Below, one piece after another: positions 27,974 to 40,308 of a stretch of 64,000 nucleotides of DNA. Both the position numbers and the translations under genes were made by a program. Origin of the DNA: Escherichia virus TH42. Position 1 is the stretch's first letter. Each line of letters opens with the position of its first letter. The stretch is from sequence record MT446413.1, one strand, 5' to 3'. Below the pieces are notes generated by a model. It was not told the DNA's origin. It did not search any database and worked only from the letters and a program-made list of their open reading frames with translations.

Positions 27974-28315
27974 TTACGGATTGGTGCAAGTGCCGTTACC
28001 GGATGATATTTCGTTCATCGACTCATCGAACAACGTCATACTAGACCGCATCATGTGATCAATAGTAATTTGTTTGCCTGTAGCTTCGTTAACAAGCATC
28101 GCATATTTGCTATCAACAACCTTGTTGTCGTAGTCATTCAGGTCAATCAATACTACCTTGCTGGACTTCTTGCCAGTGTCGTAATTTTCCATAAGGTAGG
28201 TACATTGCAGGCCATCGAGATTAGCCTCATTGAATACGGCAGCATAAGACACGGAAGAAACAGCGAACAAGGCAGCACATACAGCTAATTTAATTTTCAT
28301 AATCCAATCCTCCAA
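27974..28315 (-). CDS. secreted/periplasmic small protein
   Basis: 113 aa; signal-peptide-like MKIKLAVCAALFAVSSVSYAAVF (internal ATG probable start); terminator downstream. Confidence 0.45.
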   Translation of the reverse strand: MEDWIMKIKLAVCAALFAVSSVSYAAVFNEANLDGLQCTYLMENYDTGKKSSKVVLIDLNDYDNKVVDSKYAMLVNEATGKQITIDHMMRSSMTLFDESMNEISSGNGTCTNP

Positions 28316-28676: not shown

Positions 28677-29536
28677 TGGATAGCCTCACAATTAGCAAAG
28701 TTAATAAAGGTTGTATAAACTGCTACACCGTCATTGTAAGCAGTGGTAGCGAGTACAGTTTCACTAACATCACCATAGCTAACGAGATTAGTCACGAACT
28801 GTAATTTCTCTTTCTCAACCTTCTGATATAGAGAGTATGTAACCATGTCATGATCACTATCAGCACGCTTTAAATTAATAACCGACTGAATGCCTGATTT
28901 CTCACTTAACGGGGTAAGAGTGACACGCACATCTTTTACGGTTACAGAGTTAAAATGCACCTTCCAGAATGAATCATTACCATCACTGCCAACGTCACGG
29001 CAAGCCATATCAGGAGCATTCTTAAACGTGCTAACAAAGGATTGAAGACCTGTAGAAAGAGAGTCTTTTGCCTGCACATTGGTAGCGATAGCACTAACAC
29101 TGATAGCTGCAACCAGCGCATAACTTGCAAGGTTGACAGACTTCATAATCTTACTTGCAATAGAAGGCTTACTATCTTTCTTCTTCTTGTTCTGAACAGC
29201 TTCAACCATAGCAGACAAGCGGGATAATACTGCGTTAACATCGCGGCAAGATTCAGGCCAATCATTCTGAGTCCAACTATCTAAATTAGCCTGAATGTAA
29301 CAGTTGATAGCATCTTGCATATCTGTAAAACCATTCTCTTTCATTGACTGCTCATCTTCACACTGTAAGGCGTTCGCAGCGGAATCTATGATAAGACAAG
29401 CCAGAATGACAGAGTTTTTAAAGCTGGTGCGAGCTTGCTGGTTATCCATCCATTGAGAAGGCACACCAACGGAAAGACCTAACAGAGAAAGTACATCATT
29501 TGCCTGATTCAAGTATTTAATTGCTAACTTTGACAT
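28673..29536 (-). CDS. hypothetical protein
   Basis: Start at internal ATG (MSKLAIKYLNQ...) with AAGGA SD; track ORF begins at TTG 29569. Confidence 0.45.
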   Translation of the reverse strand: MSKLAIKYLNQANDVLSLLGLSVGVPSQWMDNQQARTSFKNSVILACLIIDSAANALQCEDEQSMKENGFTDMQDAINCYIQANLDSWTQNDWPESCRDVNAVLSRLSAMVEAVQNKKKKDSKPSIASKIMKSVNLASYALVAAISVSAIATNVQAKDSLSTGLQSFVSTFKNAPDMACRDVGSDGNDSFWKVHFNSVTVKDVRVTLTPLSEKSGIQSVINLKRADSDHDMVTYSLYQKVEKEKLQFVTNLVSYGDVSETVLATTAYNDGVAVYTTFINFANCEAIQ

Positions 29537-29824
29537 TTCATTAATCCTTTCGGTTGATGTGAACTGCAAACTACAGTCGCAACTATATATTAAAGGAAAA
29601 ACATGTCAACCACTTATTTTCAAACTATTTCATAACTCATTGAATCTAAAAGGAATTTAATTTACTAAACTTTCTTACTCAGAGGTACAGCTTACTAACA
29701 GAATGTTACTTTATAACGCTTATAGAACGGGTAGCAGATCAACGGTAACGACAGATGGGTAGAACGTGCCGCATAGGTTAGCCAATGGGTAAGAAGCCTA
29801 ACGAGGAAGGGGAAACGGGTAGGA

Positions 29825-29835
29825 TATAATGTAAG
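29825..29835 (+). promoter_or_regulatory. TATAAT / TAATGTA-type promoter element in control region
   Basis: ggaTATAATGTAAG: TATAAT 29825-29830 overlapping TAATGTAAG 29827-29835. Confidence 0.3.
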
Positions 29836-30059
29836 TTAGTTACAGGTAACAGGTCAGACCATGCGGGAGTTAATTACCAGTCAAATAATTTACTCAAACA
29901 ACAAAAGAAAAAGACCAACAGCACGCTGAAAAAGAAAAAGATTAAAAGAAAGGATTAACATAATCACTTAAGTAAACAATAACCAGTCTAAACATACATA
30001 CATCAATAATCCACTCATAAATAATCACATAAGTTATTACATTCAAACTATGGGGAGTG

Positions 30060-30082
30060 TGTGGGTTGATATAATTGCATGG
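30060..30082 (+). promoter_or_regulatory. extended -10 promoter (rightward)
   Basis: TGaTATAAT at 30067-30075. Confidence 0.4.
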
Positions 30083-30544
30083 TGTTACCATGTGGGTATC
30101 ATTAATGTTCTTACTATTAATACCGGTTAGTTATAGTCTTCTATTAGTATGCCTGTACAGTACATCAGAGTCTAGCCTTTCATCCCTTCTCAACATGAGT
30201 AAGAGAAATACGGGTAGGAAATCACTGGTTAGATATACATGGGTAGATTCGCATTACTAGATAATGCTCATGGGTAAATAATGCATGTCTAATATCAATG
30301 GGTAGGGTATTTATGGGTAGGTGTGCCACTGAACGCAGATAGGGCAAGGCTTAGAGCTTAAAGGCTGATTGATTTCCTAAAGGCGATTGCATTCCCTATA
30401 ACCCTTTTTTAAATGAGGACTCCCCCTTTTACCAAAACACGCTCGGAGGGGCTAGGTCCACTCGGTCAAATCAGAATTTTAAACCCTTATATATAACTAT
30501 ATGCCCCAACGTTAGTTGTGGATTTAAGAGTGAGGAACAACTTT

Positions 30545-30709
30545 ATGTGGAAATTGAAGATGATTATCAGGCAGATTAAATGTAATCACGAGTACTACCC
30601 AATCCGGATATCGAGAGGTGATGAACGGTTACATGCTTATTACAAGAGTACATGGAGGTGTGCAGATTGTGGTAAGGTTAAGAATAGTAAATGGGTGGAT
30701 AGGCCTTAA
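30545..30709 (+). CDS. small zinc-ribbon protein
   Basis: Start at ATG (MWKLKMIIRQIKCNHEYY...RCADCGKVKNS) with GAGG SD; track ORF begins at GTG 30518. Confidence 0.35.
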   Translation: MWKLKMIIRQIKCNHEYYPIRISRGDERLHAYYKSTWRCADCGKVKNSKWVDRP

Positions 30710-30831
30710 CATGACATGGCCTTTATGAAGTCCCCTTTACATCAGCGTACATGGGTTCATACATGGGTGGGCCTTTAGATGAGTAAGCCTTTATGGGTTG
30801 ATCACTCTCGTTTATCAGAGGAGATATAAAA

Positions 30832-31080
30832 ATGATTCTAGACTTTTTATCAGAGCTGCTTCCTTACTTCCGCACTGAAAGATGTGCATTTGTATTTGAT
30901 GAAGGGGAGGAGGTATTGAGTTGTTTGGGTAGATTAGTAGACCTAGATGACGATGAAGATTTTGATGCTACGATGGATATTAGTTCATTGGGCTGGTTGT
31001 ACATGAGATGCTTTGTAACCTACAAGGCTGAGACGTTTAAAGACTATCGTTATAACACGGAAGGAGAGAATGATGAATAA
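30832..31080 (+). CDS. acidic hypothetical protein
   Basis: 82 aa ORF; DLDDDEDFD tract. Confidence 0.4.
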   Translation: MILDFLSELLPYFRTERCAFVFDEGEEVLSCLGRLVDLDDDEDFDATMDISSLGWLYMRCFVTYKAETFKDYRYNTEGENDE

Positions 31081-32325: not shown

Positions 32326-33867
32326 ATGTCATTAGATAAAGAAATATATGAAGCACTAACTGGAGACAAACTATCGGTAGAGGAGAAGAAGGCTCTGCTT
32401 GAAATGCTGAAGGATAGAGATCAATGGAGAAAGTATAATAGGATTCTTTCTTTTAAAGCATACCAGTTTCAGAAAGACTTTTATGCAGCGGGACTGAAGC
32501 ATCGCTTTAGATTCCTGTGTGCAGCTAACCGTGTTGGTAAATCTTACAGCGAGGCATACGAGTTTGCTTGTCATGTCACAGGTCGCTACCCAACTTGGTG
32601 GACAGGATATAGATTTAATCGACCCATATTGGCTTGGGCAGTAGGGATTACAGGGGACTCTACAAGAAAGGTATTGCAAAAGGAATTGTTTGGAACACCT
32701 ATCGGAAAGGATACAAACTTATTAGGGACGGGTGTTATTCCTCGTGATGCTATCGTCATTGACACGATAGAACGAGATGGAAACAAATTACAGATCGTAC
32801 AAATCAAGCACCAAAATGCTAGAGGCGAATTTGATGGGCTGAGTACGTTAGAGTTTCGTTCTACCCAACAAGGTGAACACACATTAATGGGTGCTACAGT
32901 GGATTACATTTGGCTGGATGAAGAAGATCCTTATGAAAGTATGGCAATCTTCTCTCAGTGCGTAACACGTACACTTACTACTAAAGGTTTAGTTACGATT
33001 ACAGCTACACCAGAGAACGGATTAACAGAGCTGGTGGACAAGTTTATGAAAGGTGAAGGGGACGAGAACACAGGTTCTCTATATTTCCAAAATGCTTCTT
33101 GGTGGGATGCTCATGTGGACCTAGGTGGTCACATCTCTGACCAAGATATAAAGGATATGACAGAAGGTATTCCGGCATGGCAGCTAGAGATGCGCTCTAA
33201 AGGTATGCCTCTGTTGGGTTCAGGTTTGATTTATGATGTATCTGATGATTCAATTAAGTGTGACCCGTTTGAAATTCCTGATACGTGGAAACGTGTTTGT
33301 GCCATTGATATTGGTATTGATCACCCGACGGCAGCTGTATGGTCAGCTTATGATGCTAACACCGATACAATCTACATTTATGACTGCTATAAAGAAAGTG
33401 GCTTTACTCCAGTGTATCATGCACCAGCTATTAATGGTCGTGGTCAGTGGATTCCAGTCATTCTTCCTCACGATGCTGATAACATTGAGAAGGGAAGTGG
33501 TGCTTCTGTAGCACAATTCTATAAAAATGCAGGAGTAAACGTACAAAATGATACCTTCCATAACAAGATCGGAATGGATGGTAAGAAGAACTTCTTTGTG
33601 GAGCCAGGAATTACTGATATTCGTGAGCGTATGATGTCAGGTCGATTCAAAGTCTTTAATACTACCGCATGTGCTAAGCTCTTTGAAGAGAAAGCACGTT
33701 ACCATCGAAAAGTTGGTAAGATTATTAAAGAACATGATGACCTTATGGACGCAATGCGATATTCAGCTTGTTCTGTTACACACAGAGGTCGGTCTAAGCA
33801 TGACGCTAGCTATGGTAGCTCGTCGCTTTATCAAGAAAATATTAACAGATGGAATCAAAGCTACTAA
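32326..33867 (+). CDS. terminase large subunit
   Basis: 513 aa; Walker A-like CAANRVGKS, ATPase plus C-terminal nuclease-type acidic residues; precedes portal. Confidence 0.75.
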   Translation: MSLDKEIYEALTGDKLSVEEKKALLEMLKDRDQWRKYNRILSFKAYQFQKDFYAAGLKHRFRFLCAANRVGKSYSEAYEFACHVTGRYPTWWTGYRFNRPILAWAVGITGDSTRKVLQKELFGTPIGKDTNLLGTGVIPRDAIVIDTIERDGNKLQIVQIKHQNARGEFDGLSTLEFRSTQQGEHTLMGATVDYIWLDEEDPYESMAIFSQCVTRTLTTKGLVTITATPENGLTELVDKFMKGEGDENTGSLYFQNASWWDAHVDLGGHISDQDIKDMTEGIPAWQLEMRSKGMPLLGSGLIYDVSDDSIKCDPFEIPDTWKRVCAIDIGIDHPTAAVWSAYDANTDTIYIYDCYKESGFTPVYHAPAINGRGQWIPVILPHDADNIEKGSGASVAQFYKNAGVNVQNDTFHNKIGMDGKKNFFVEPGITDIRERMMSGRFKVFNTTACAKLFEEKARYHRKVGKIIKEHDDLMDAMRYSACSVTHRGRSKHDASYGSSSLYQENINRWNQSY

Positions 33868-39561: not shown

Positions 39562-40308
39562 ATGGCAATGCCTGAAGTTCAGTATCCTATCAATACCTAT
39601 GGCTGGCTTAAAAAGGCTGTGTCACTCTGGGCCGATAGGGATGATGGTGAATTTGTAGATCAAATTCCAAACTTTATTAACTTTGCAGAGAAAGAAATCT
39701 ATCGTAACTTACGAATCCCTCCTCTGGAAAAAGAAGTATATTTAGATATCAAGGATGGTATTGCTTTTATCCCTCCTGACTTTTTAGAAGCACAGTGGAT
39801 TATGAGAGCTTCAAATGGAATGATGTTCAGAGTAACCTCTCCTGAAGAACTTGACTGGTTGAAGAGAAATAACTCAGTCAACCCATCCAATTGGAATCAA
39901 GGGGAAGTTGTTTTTGCTCGTTTAGGTAGTCGGTTTATGTTCTACCCTCTAATTGATGCAGATACTCCTGTTTATCCTGATGATGGAGCACCTGAAATCC
40001 CTGCTGAGAATGCTGTAGTTTTAAGTTATTATGCAGACCCACCGGAGTTCCACTCTGATGAAGATACCAGTGCTATTCTAACTATTGCTCCTGAGCTGCT
40101 TCTATATTTTACTCTGCGTCATGCTTCTTTATTCGTTCAAGATGATAATGGAGTTCAAAAGTGGTCAGCACTTGGTAAAGCAATCCTTGACGAGATTGTG
40201 GAGCAGAGTAAGAAAGCAGAATACTCAGGTTCCCCTCTAGTAATCCCTAATACTATTAGCCGTCTTAATAGCTCACGAGAAGTGTACGGCATTCGTAGAT
40301 ACAGATAA
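39562..40308 (+). CDS. virion structural protein (head-tail joining or tail tube candidate)
   Basis: 248 aa ORF between capsid and tail fibre genes. Confidence 0.45.
   Translation: MAMPEVQYPINTYGWLKKAVSLWADRDDGEFVDQIPNFINFAEKEIYRNLRIPPLEKEVYLDIKDGIAFIPPDFLEAQWIMRASNGMMFRVTSPEELDWLKRNNSVNPSNWNQGEVVFARLGSRFMFYPLIDADTPVYPDDGAPEIPAENAVVLSYYADPPEFHSDEDTSAILTIAPELLLYFTLRHASLFVQDDNGVQKWSALGKAILDEIVEQSKKAEYSGSPLVIPNTISRLNSSREVYGIRRYR

Follow-up and report, generated by a model that had tools for sequence, protein, structure and literature searches.

What is the function of a series of short, evenly spaced boxes that stands between a leftward and a rightward block of genes in Escherichia virus TH42 (sequence record MT446413.1)? 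We analysed a stretch of 64,000 nucleotides of this phage (hereafter the window, to which all positions refer), in which a reading of the sequence alone had noted at least nine copies of a short motif in a presumed divergent control region, and had suggested either a replication origin or a switch of transcription. We found that the boxes form two arrays on one strand that are conserved in the relatives of this phage, and that the region is the junction of the two genome ends, the second array lying inside the terminal repeat. On balance we propose, with a confidence that is about evenly poised, that the boxes are cis-acting protein-binding sites of the apparatus that acts at the concatemer junction in end formation and packaging.

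Two co-oriented arrays of an 8-bp box

Nine matches to (A/C)(C/T)GGGTA(A/G) were identified within 594 bp, all of them on the + strand (9/9 co-oriented), and each within 1 nt of the position at which the sequence-only reading had placed it. They resolve into one array of four boxes with spacings of 28, 30 and 30 bp (array 1), and a second of five boxes with spacings of 29, 31, 28 and 15 bp (array 2; Table 1). The spacing had been described as about three helical turns; the mean of ~29 bp corresponds to 2.8 turns, and the spacings are better put as once or twice a step of ~14.5 bp. Repeat finders recovered only the 8-bp core as common to all copies, with the first boxes of the two arrays sharing up to ~14-20 nt.

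The density of boxes is far above that expected by chance. Both strands of the window together contain 18 matches to the pattern, compared to a mean of 9.2 in shuffled sequence, and none of the shuffles (0/100) reached 18. Across 500 first-order Markov simulations of the window, the largest number of same-strand matches in any 600 bp was 3; a model of the local composition gave an expected count of 0.28 and likewise a maximum of 3, and the Poisson probability of at least nine boxes in 594 bp at the background rate is ~1e-18.

The arrays lie at the junction of the genome ends

DNA matches identify the window as a phiEco32-like podophage of Escherichia coli, in the Kuravirus group (Gordonclarkvirinae). 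Identity in the junction region is 79-88% to TH43, TH34, Bas86-88 and MLP3, and ~73% to the phiEco32 clade. Phages of the phiEco32 type have linear genomes with short, exact direct terminal repeats, or DTRs (PMC9965538, PMC4281155). The 193-bp repeat of phiEco32 was determined experimentally, and was confirmed in SU10 by a sharp drop-off of reads, in Paul by PhageTerm and in YF01 by whole-genome nanopore reads (PMC4281155, PMC9965538).

Homology to records that were linearised at their physical ends places the probable DTR of the window phage at 30174-30453, of which the window holds only one copy. The first base of the phiEco32 record, which begins AGCCTTTC..., aligns to 30174, and its last bases, ...GCGAGCGGCT, align to ...GGAGGGGCT, ending at 30453; the NC-B record ends in the homologous ...GGAGAGGCT. 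In a search with 30174-30453, the records of NC-B, SU7, HC-25922 and UKE3 began at query position 1. Query position 280 corresponded to record position 249-250 in the records of the closer relatives (clade A, below), and to record position 193 in records of the phiEco32 clade (IME267, WFI101126, ES17, SU10, YF01 and Paul), two of which, YF01 and Paul, annotate that 193-bp stretch as a direct terminal repeat. NC-B (MK310183) annotates a repeat of 194 bp, although 250 bp match at both its ends. The DTR would thus measure 280 bp in the window phage, 248-250 bp in all clade A relatives in the databases and 193 bp in the phiEco32 clade, the window phage having 280 bp rather than ~249 bp because of an extra unit of box and spacer in array 2 (Table 1).

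We conclude that the window sequence derives from a circular or concatemer-type assembly, with 30174-30453 as its collapsed DTR, so that what had been read as a divergent control region between two gene blocks is the junction of two genome ends. In the linear DNA of the virion the leftward and rightward gene blocks lie at opposite ends. Array 1 is situated 352-447 bp upstream of the predicted left terminus of the DTR, and array 2 lies within the 280-bp repeat, with its first box 37 nt from that terminus.

Both predicted boundaries of the DTR (30172-30175 and 30452-30455) fall in the middle of a CTAG, the left reading ...CAGAGTCT^AGCCTTTC and the right ...GGGGCT^AGGTCC (^ marks the predicted cut), and many relatives have GCT^AGCC at both. 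The phiEco32 and NC-B records end at the homologous ...GGCT of the right boundary. The similarity of the two CTAG contexts suggests that one nuclease specificity may make both cuts.

The arrays are conserved in relatives and vary in concert

Both arrays were present, at fixed offsets from the terminus, in each of the Kuravirus-group relatives in which those parts were read (17/17), bearing out the conservation on which the case for a functional array depends. Across two clades, 14 relatives were read over the whole junction and two others over part of it (SU7, left end only; PAS59, DTR and downstream sequence). Clade A contains the window phage, TH43, TH34, Bas87, Bas88, MLP3, BS3, NC-B, SU7 and PAS59, and clade B contains phiEco32, SR02, Bas90, Bas91, EC.W2-6 and ShigP1.

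In clade A, array 1 consists of ACGGGTAG, two ATGGGTA(A/G) boxes and a final ACGGGTAG (ACGGGTGG in Bas87), at spacings of 28/30/30 in the genomes covered (all but SU7 and PAS59). In clade B it consists of three boxes at spacings of 27-29, namely ACGGGTA(A/G) (ACGGGCAG in Bas91), ACGGGGA(G/T) and ACGGGGAA. The boxes of array 2 lie at +37, +66, +94 and +109 from the start of the DTR in clade A (those of the window phage are given in Table 1), and at +37, +66, +80 and +93 in clade B, the offsets of +37 and +66 being the same in both clades. Bas89 represents a third variant, with ACGGGGNA-type boxes at about +37, +68, +95 and +126.

Each array opens with ACGGGTAG in the majority of genomes, in clade A as in clade B, and with one of the single-base variants ACGGGTAA, ACGGGTGG and ACGGGTAT in some. 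The later boxes differ between lineages, and do so alike in both arrays: they read ATGGGTAR in clade A (T-type) and ACGGGGAR in clade B and Bas89 (G-type), differing by C to T at position 2 and G to T at position 6. Over DTR positions 1-73, which align without gaps between the clades, identity is 81% at box positions and 47-54% elsewhere.

We additionally identified a natural mosaic, IME267 (NC_070983; L026 and L033 in our set), whose record holds one DTR copy and whose crossover lies in the conserved right part of the DTR. Its left DTR part, array 1 and right-end genes are phiEco32-like, and its right DTR part, genes 1-5 and allele of the candidate small terminase (TerS, below) are clade A-like. 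Both of its arrays are of the G-type found in clade B, and are therefore matched. The box type thus travels with the right-end module, which could be mere linkage.

More distant metagenomic relatives, whose candidate TerS proteins are 62-74% identical and whose genomes measure 88-100 kb, carry a non-coding stretch of 1.7-3 kb at the junction. An exact k-mer search of these genomes recovered no long regular array, and found scattered ACGGGNNN boxes, some of them 29-30 bp apart. An A-rich ACGGGTA box occurs at +27 to +39 from a recognisable terminus in those whose TerS is 67-74% identical. In L022 and L023 a terminus-like AGCGCCTTTC is followed by AAATACGGGTAA at +39; in L020 and L021, CATCT^AGCAATCC is followed by ATAAACGGGTGA at +27, and the boxes upstream end in ACGGGGTAATTATAATGTATCG. 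A search of IMG/VR for relatives carrying the 298-aa neighbouring protein found none.

A third, looser cluster was identified after gene 1 (Table 1). The sequence-only reading had listed loose copies of the motif at 30690-30800, and ATGGGT(G/T)N words are indeed present there, but they are interleaved with a second motif family, GCCTT(T/A)A. True box matches occur in the same region of relatives (ATGGGTAA/TGGGGTAG in clade A, and GCCTTTACGGGTAG in phiEco32). The second family clusters at 30359-30398 and 30703-30793, which hold 5/10 of the exact GCCTTTA matches of the window; a 19-bp tandem within the DTR holds two inverted copies, and three or four copies in direct orientation follow gene 1, where they are often fused to a box as GCCTTTAYGGGT. 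The genome terminus at 30174 itself reads AGCCTTTC.

A proposed role in end formation and packaging

The boxes have the look of protein-binding sites because they occur far above chance, in one orientation and at regular spacing, and because their position is conserved while the spacers diverge between lineages. The earlier suggestion of binding sites for a phage or a host protein is thus partly supported. Phage lineages with E. coli as their common host differ in the box variant, which favours a binder encoded by the phage and makes a host protein unlikely.

Replicating concatemers would present, in order, the right-end early genes, array 1, the A-rich spacer, the left cut (CT^AGCC), the DTR with array 2, the right cut (CT^AGG), gene 1 and the looser third cluster. 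In the mechanism that we propose, an oligomeric phage protein would bind the co-oriented boxes cooperatively, in steps of ~14.5 or 29 bp, and would nucleate on ACGGGTAG, the invariant first box, which lies 37 nt in from the terminus. The bound complex would mark the junction, set the direction of packaging and hold the terminase nuclease at a fixed distance for cutting, while array 1 would offer a second platform across the junction, for the formation of the right end or for duplication of the repeat. As a step of ~14.5 bp is 1.4 helical turns, successive boxes would not face the same side of the DNA, an arrangement that would fit DNA running around or between the subunits of a ring better than a flat array. 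The identity of the binder, its cooperative binding and its role in cutting and packaging are inferred. A more specific form of the proposal, in which AYGGGKAR boxes are the code by which an exact-DTR terminase finds the concatemer junction and measures both CT^AG cuts, nucleating at the +37 ACGGGTAG and spreading to both sides, is considerably more tentative, and we think it possible rather than probable.

The most plausible candidate for the binder is the small terminase. A profile of 43 homologues of the candidate TerS, a protein of 155 aa (Table 1), matches the small terminases 7JOQ (E=0.0024) and 6W7T, that of PaP3 (E=0.12), in the PDB, over the oligomerisation core only, and a DUF5681 match is present in 19/43 of the homologues. 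A match of the YF01 candidate to PaP3 TerS was found with HHpred (PMC9965538), and PaP3 TerS is a nonamer that shows sequence-specific binding to its cos DNA (PMC7672466). An AlphaFold model of the candidate was poor (pLDDT 66), and a Foldseek search of the PDB with this model returned no match. The protein contains an invariant basic motif, KGNKFGRPKGSRGK (residues 40-55), that is AT-hook-like, and no recognisable helix-turn-helix.

Several observations weigh against the packaging proposal. At the level of the DNA, the termini of the window phage are themselves placed by homology, and PAS59 (OQ921332) annotates a discordant repeat of 275 bp, beginning ~208 bp left of AGCCTTTC. A distance of 350 bp separates array 1 from the closest cut site, a long way for an element that positions a terminase. 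In clade A, array 1 shows equal conservation of spacers and boxes, so that box-specific constraint is visible only between clades. To our knowledge, the function of the comparable arrays of T7 has not been established in ~40 years. A part for the boxes in binding, packaging and end formation is accordingly put forward here as a proposal.

At the level of the protein, the assignment of the 155-aa product as TerS is weak, and its N-terminal motif KGNKFGRPKGSRGK is more like an arm of the AT-hook type than a reader of G-rich sequence. TerS is ~90% identical across the clades, while the end-proximal genes are just 54-61% identical. Residues beside the motif, E33/T36 versus N33/N36, do separate T-type from G-type box genomes among 16 genomes including Bas89, but this covariation is broken by IME267, which combines an E/T TerS of clade A with G-type boxes of clade B. 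Thus, either TerS makes no distinction between the box variants, or the binder is not TerS. The failure of the covariation is compatible with recognition of the shared core only, or of the largely invariant first box only.

A second protein labelled as a terminase, of 113 aa and encoded at the right end (phrog_13168; phi32_125 in phiEco32; 27974-28315 on the - strand of the window), was considered as a binder and rejected: its N-terminus carries a signal peptide, MKIKLAVCAALFAVSSVSYA, its sequence contains conserved cysteines, and it lacks features of DNA-binding proteins. Homologues of this protein are confined to this phage group, and the label looks wrong.

Comparison with the ends of other phages

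Bacteriophage T7 offers the closest parallel in arrangement. Its ends carry C(C/A)TAA(A/G)G on one strand only: the two end segments together have 27 matches, and the - strand has none. Ahead of the right terminal repeat there are five copies (39621-39700); the repeat itself contains four (17, 41, 60 and 94), and 11 follow it (175-355). The short-repeat arrays around the 160-bp terminal repeat of T7 were reportedly named SRR and SRL by Dunn and Studier in 1983. Both T7 and the window phage are podophages with linear genomes, short exact terminal repeats and arrays at the junction. In both, a 7-8-bp box recurs many times on one strand, before, in the left part of and after the repeat (first copy inside it at +17 in T7 and +37 here), at spacings that are multiples of ~13-15 bp (13 or ~25 bp in T7; 13-15 or 27-31 bp here). 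Phage-type promoters lie nearby, T7 records annotating phiOR and phiOL beside the end arrays, and the window containing the gp36-like ATAATGTA.

The two systems differ in the box itself (CCTAAAG versus AYGGGTAR, without sequence similarity), and no record of the T7 group was found among the DNA matches; phage family and terminase lineage are also unrelated. The dominant spacing is ~29 bp here and 13 bp in T7, array 1 is set off from the repeat by a 350-bp A-rich tract, and the array after the repeat, strong in T7, is weak here. The arrangement appears to be a functional analogue of the T7 arrays and not a sequence homologue, and what the comparison transfers is a location, not a mechanism.

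In lambda, the R3, R2 and R1 sites of cosB are bound by the small terminase gpNu1, beside the nicking site cosN. The two systems share several short boxes within ~40-150 bp, on one side of a terminase cut, that are thought to be bound by an oligomeric small terminase positioning the nuclease; in the window phage, boxes lie within ~150 bp of the predicted cut site at distances that are fixed in both clades (+37 and +66). In contrast, lambda has 12-nt cohesive ends and no terminal repeat, and its R sites are 16 bp long, of mixed orientation and accompanied by an IHF bend, whereas the window phage would need two cuts 280 bp apart and has its second array 350 bp away.

The small terminases of PaP3 and NV1 (PDB 6W7T and 7JOQ) resemble the 155-aa protein in the oligomerisation core recovered by the profile search. 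This match is weak and limited to the C-terminal core, and the window protein has a basic GRPKGSRGK motif where no helix-turn-helix could be recognised. PaP3 was moreover studied as a cos phage on a 20-bp site, and not on an array of boxes, in work that also mentions lambda cosB (PMC7672466).

Alternative explanations

The replication origin and the switch of transcription put forward in the sequence-only reading found no specific support, the promoters lying outside the arrays and the position of the boxes pointing to end formation and packaging. An origin, which we consider unlikely, would make the boxes iteron-like sites for an initiator or helicase loader, with the A-rich tract of 29840-30173 as the unwinding element, possibly activated by transcription from ATATAATGTAAG at 29824. 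Iteron origins, such as lambda ori with the O protein or plasmid origins with Rep, contain repeats of ~17-22 bp, usually with a period of some two helical turns, that adjoin the initiator gene or lie within it, and T7 origins pair a phage promoter with an AT-rich stretch. The window phage shares with these regularly spaced direct repeats that adjoin an AT-rich tract (330 bp of 29-32% G+C, up to 49% A), and a promoter-like element that faces this tract and that clade A and distant relatives retain; the phiOL and phiOR promoters that adjoin the T7 end arrays act as secondary origins.

The boxes are, however, only 8 bp long, with unconserved spacers. None of the flanking genes could be recognised as that of an initiator: the eight proteins encoded there had no match in Pfam and hit only PHROGs of unknown function, except for doubtful or uninformative 'terminase' and 'ABC transporter' labels, although an unrecognised initiator may be among them. 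[quoted passage not shown] The cumulative GC-skew minimum falls at 29500-29800, as an origin might predict, but it is uninformative because it coincides with the switch in the direction of transcription.

A second alternative, which we regard as slightly less probable, is some other role tied to the genome end. On the DNA that enters the cell first, the boxes might bind an ejected virion protein or an early protein (to control entry, or to protect the end from RecBCD as Chi does), or they might be sites at which a phage primase starts the lagging strand near the 3' end. None of the nine boxes is more than 730 bp from the right end, and they precede an early leftward promoter that is ~845-870 bp from the predicted right terminus and homologous to the SU10 early promoter upstream of CDS125. 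The leading end of T7 has the same order of boxes and then early promoter, and ~850 bp of T7 DNA enters the cell before transcription pulls in the remainder. The distance of the early promoter from the terminus is similar to this length, and if the right end enters first, the nine boxes would lie on the leading DNA.

The boxes are also G-rich and restricted to one strand, as is Chi, and the box variant of IME267 goes with the right-end early-gene module and not with the left-end genes and TerS. On the other hand, the E. coli Chi sequence, GCTGGTGG, is unlike the box, and the fact that phages with a common host differ in the box variant speaks against any host protein, so that we judge a host Chi-like or host-factor reading unlikely. 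The association in IME267 is explicable by simple linkage, and no candidate binder was found for such a role, the right-end 113-aa 'terminase' being a secreted protein.

Control of transcription, through operator or activator sites for an early-late switch or for late transcription across the concatemer junction, is improbable. In array 1, the final box borders on TATAATGTA, at once a sigma-70 -10 hexamer and a core of the type recognised by the phage sigma factor gp36. Array 1 also lies 118-240 bp upstream of the strong early leftward promoter, an extended -10-like TGATATAAT is present at 30067, and transcription into the junction has been linked to maturation in T7 (PMC3276506). The element beside array 1, ATATAATGTAAG, resembles the gp36 promoters of SU10, ATAATGTATA; its TATAATGTAAG is invariant in clade A, and ACGGGGTAATTATAATGTATCG stands at the same place in the distant L020 and L021. 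Matches to the gp36 promoter consensus TAATGTATA, with one mismatch allowed, were not enriched in the window; for this reason it is on similarity and conservation that the promoter reading of 29824-29835 depends.

Eight of the nine boxes overlap no promoter element: none coincides with a -35 or -10 element, and just the box at 29815 abuts a -10-like or gp36-like sequence. The only sigma-70-type promoter found in 29400-31000, at 29609-29582 on the - strand, lies outside the arrays, and the promoters of SU10, predicted by analogy with those mapped in phiEco32 (taken here from the SU10 paper), likewise include none within the arrays. Clade B retains the arrays and has a different sequence, GGTAATAATATACC, in place of TATAATGTA. 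Array 2 and the gene 1 promoter downstream of it are >140 bp apart, and the second copy of the array, at the far right end, has nothing to control; in virion DNA, moreover, the two gene blocks do not adjoin.

Finally, it is very improbable that the boxes are functionless remnants of a tandem duplication of a 29-bp unit, kept by descent: the number of units does vary (an extra 31-bp unit in the window), and spacers equal boxes in conservation within clade A, yet between clades the spacers are ~50% identical while boxes, offsets and orientation persist, the same variant switch is found in both arrays, and the first box keeps a fixed distance from the terminus in relatives with TerS just 67-74% identical.

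Other features of the junction

The promoter-like elements ATATAATGTAAG (29824-29835) and TGATATAAT (30067-30075) both face right into the junction, where the linear genome has no further gene, and are reminiscent of T7 phiOR, which reads into the concatemer junction. The leftward genes are early genes by analogy with SU10. A search of 29400-31000 against Rfam found no credible RNA family. Within the DTR, CCCTTTTTTA repeats were described for SU10 (PMC4281155) and a conserved region at 130-170 in the YF01 paper (PMC9965538). The GAGGACTCCCCC element and a right boundary like ...GCT^AGCC are retained in the metagenomic relatives L020-L025 and L029-L032 (57-101 kb), two of which, L021 and L030, also carry insertions of the homing-endonuclease type in the portal and terminase genes or close to them.

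Table 1. Sequence features at the genome junction of the window phage and the adjacent candidate TerS gene.
Feature	Position	Strand	Description
Early sigma-70 promoter (strong)	29582..29609	-	TTGACA-16-TATAGT; leftward early operon; 118 bp from array 1
Array 1	29727..29822	+	ACGGGTAG at 29727, ATGGGTAG at 29755, ATGGGTAA at 29785, ACGGGTAG at 29815; degenerate AAGGGGAA at 29807
ATATAATGTAAG	29824..29835	+	Directly after last box of array 1; TATAAT hexamer; resembles phage sigma (gp36) core ATAATGTAtA; faces DTR
A-rich spacer between array 1 and DTR	29840..30173	+	29840-30050 is 49% A, 29% G+C; conserved CGCTGAAAAAGAAA at 29924; G-rich words at 30050 and 30092
Extended -10-like TGATATAAT	30067-30075	+	TATA(A/G)T hexamer in all clade A genomes
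Left DTR boundary context	30168..30181	+	GAGTCT^AGCCTTTC; predicted left physical terminus 30174; context kept in 14 genomes
DTR	30174..30453	+	280 bp, single collapsed copy; predicted by homology to records linearised at physical ends
Array 2, within DTR	30210..30320	+	ACGGGTAG at 30210 (+37), ATGGGTAG at 30239 (+66), ATGGGTAA at 30270 (+97), ATGGGTAG at 30298 (+125), ATGGGTAG at 30313 (+140)
Extra 31-bp unit (box and spacer)	30239..30269	+	Window phage only, in clade A alignment
Tandem units	30359..30398	-	Two 19-bp units, each with TAAAGGC (GCCTTTA on - strand), second motif family
CCCTTTTTTA-N10-CCCCCTTTTA	30402..30431	+	Most conserved part of DTR
Right DTR boundary context	30448..30459	+	GGGGCT^AGGTCC; predicted right physical terminus 30453; context kept in 14 genomes
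Sigma-70-like promoter of gene 1	30464..30497	+	GGTCAA ... TATATA; just outside DTR; SU10 homologue listed as potential sigma-70 promoter upstream of CDS1
Third, looser cluster after gene 1	30691..30800	+	ATGGGT(G/T)N at 30691, 30751, 30763, 30793; GCCTT(T/A)A interleaved at 30703, 30719, 30771, 30787
Candidate TerS, 155 aa	31792..32259	+	Directly upstream of large terminase gene (32326-33867); 1.3 kb right of junction

Significance

The initiation and termination of packaging in exact-DTR phages are less understood than those of cos or headful systems, according to a 2026 review, and the recognition of the junction and the two precise cuts are poorly understood for T7/T3-like phages, T5 and many therapeutic podophages including the Kuravirus group (PMC13595956). 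Our search of the literature on the box sequences, on iterons or origins in Kuravirus and on the function of the T7 arrays found nothing relevant. The boxes themselves are not described in the SU10 or YF01 papers; arrays of short boxes on one strand around a terminal repeat were already known from T7.

This phage group offers compact, conserved candidate recognition boxes at a fixed distance from the terminus, in two natural variants and with the mosaic IME267, so that the question of recognition can be addressed by simple binding and plasmid-packaging assays. Assemblies of these phages are commonly opened at an arbitrary point. The boxes, together with the CT^AGCCTTTC and GGCT^AG contexts, additionally serve to mark the true ends, so that promoters, control regions or small open reading frames should not be annotated here. 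Should the boxes prove to be a recognition code for the terminase, they would provide a defined, mutable packaging signal for exact-DTR phages and would, by analogy, assign a function to the end arrays of T7.

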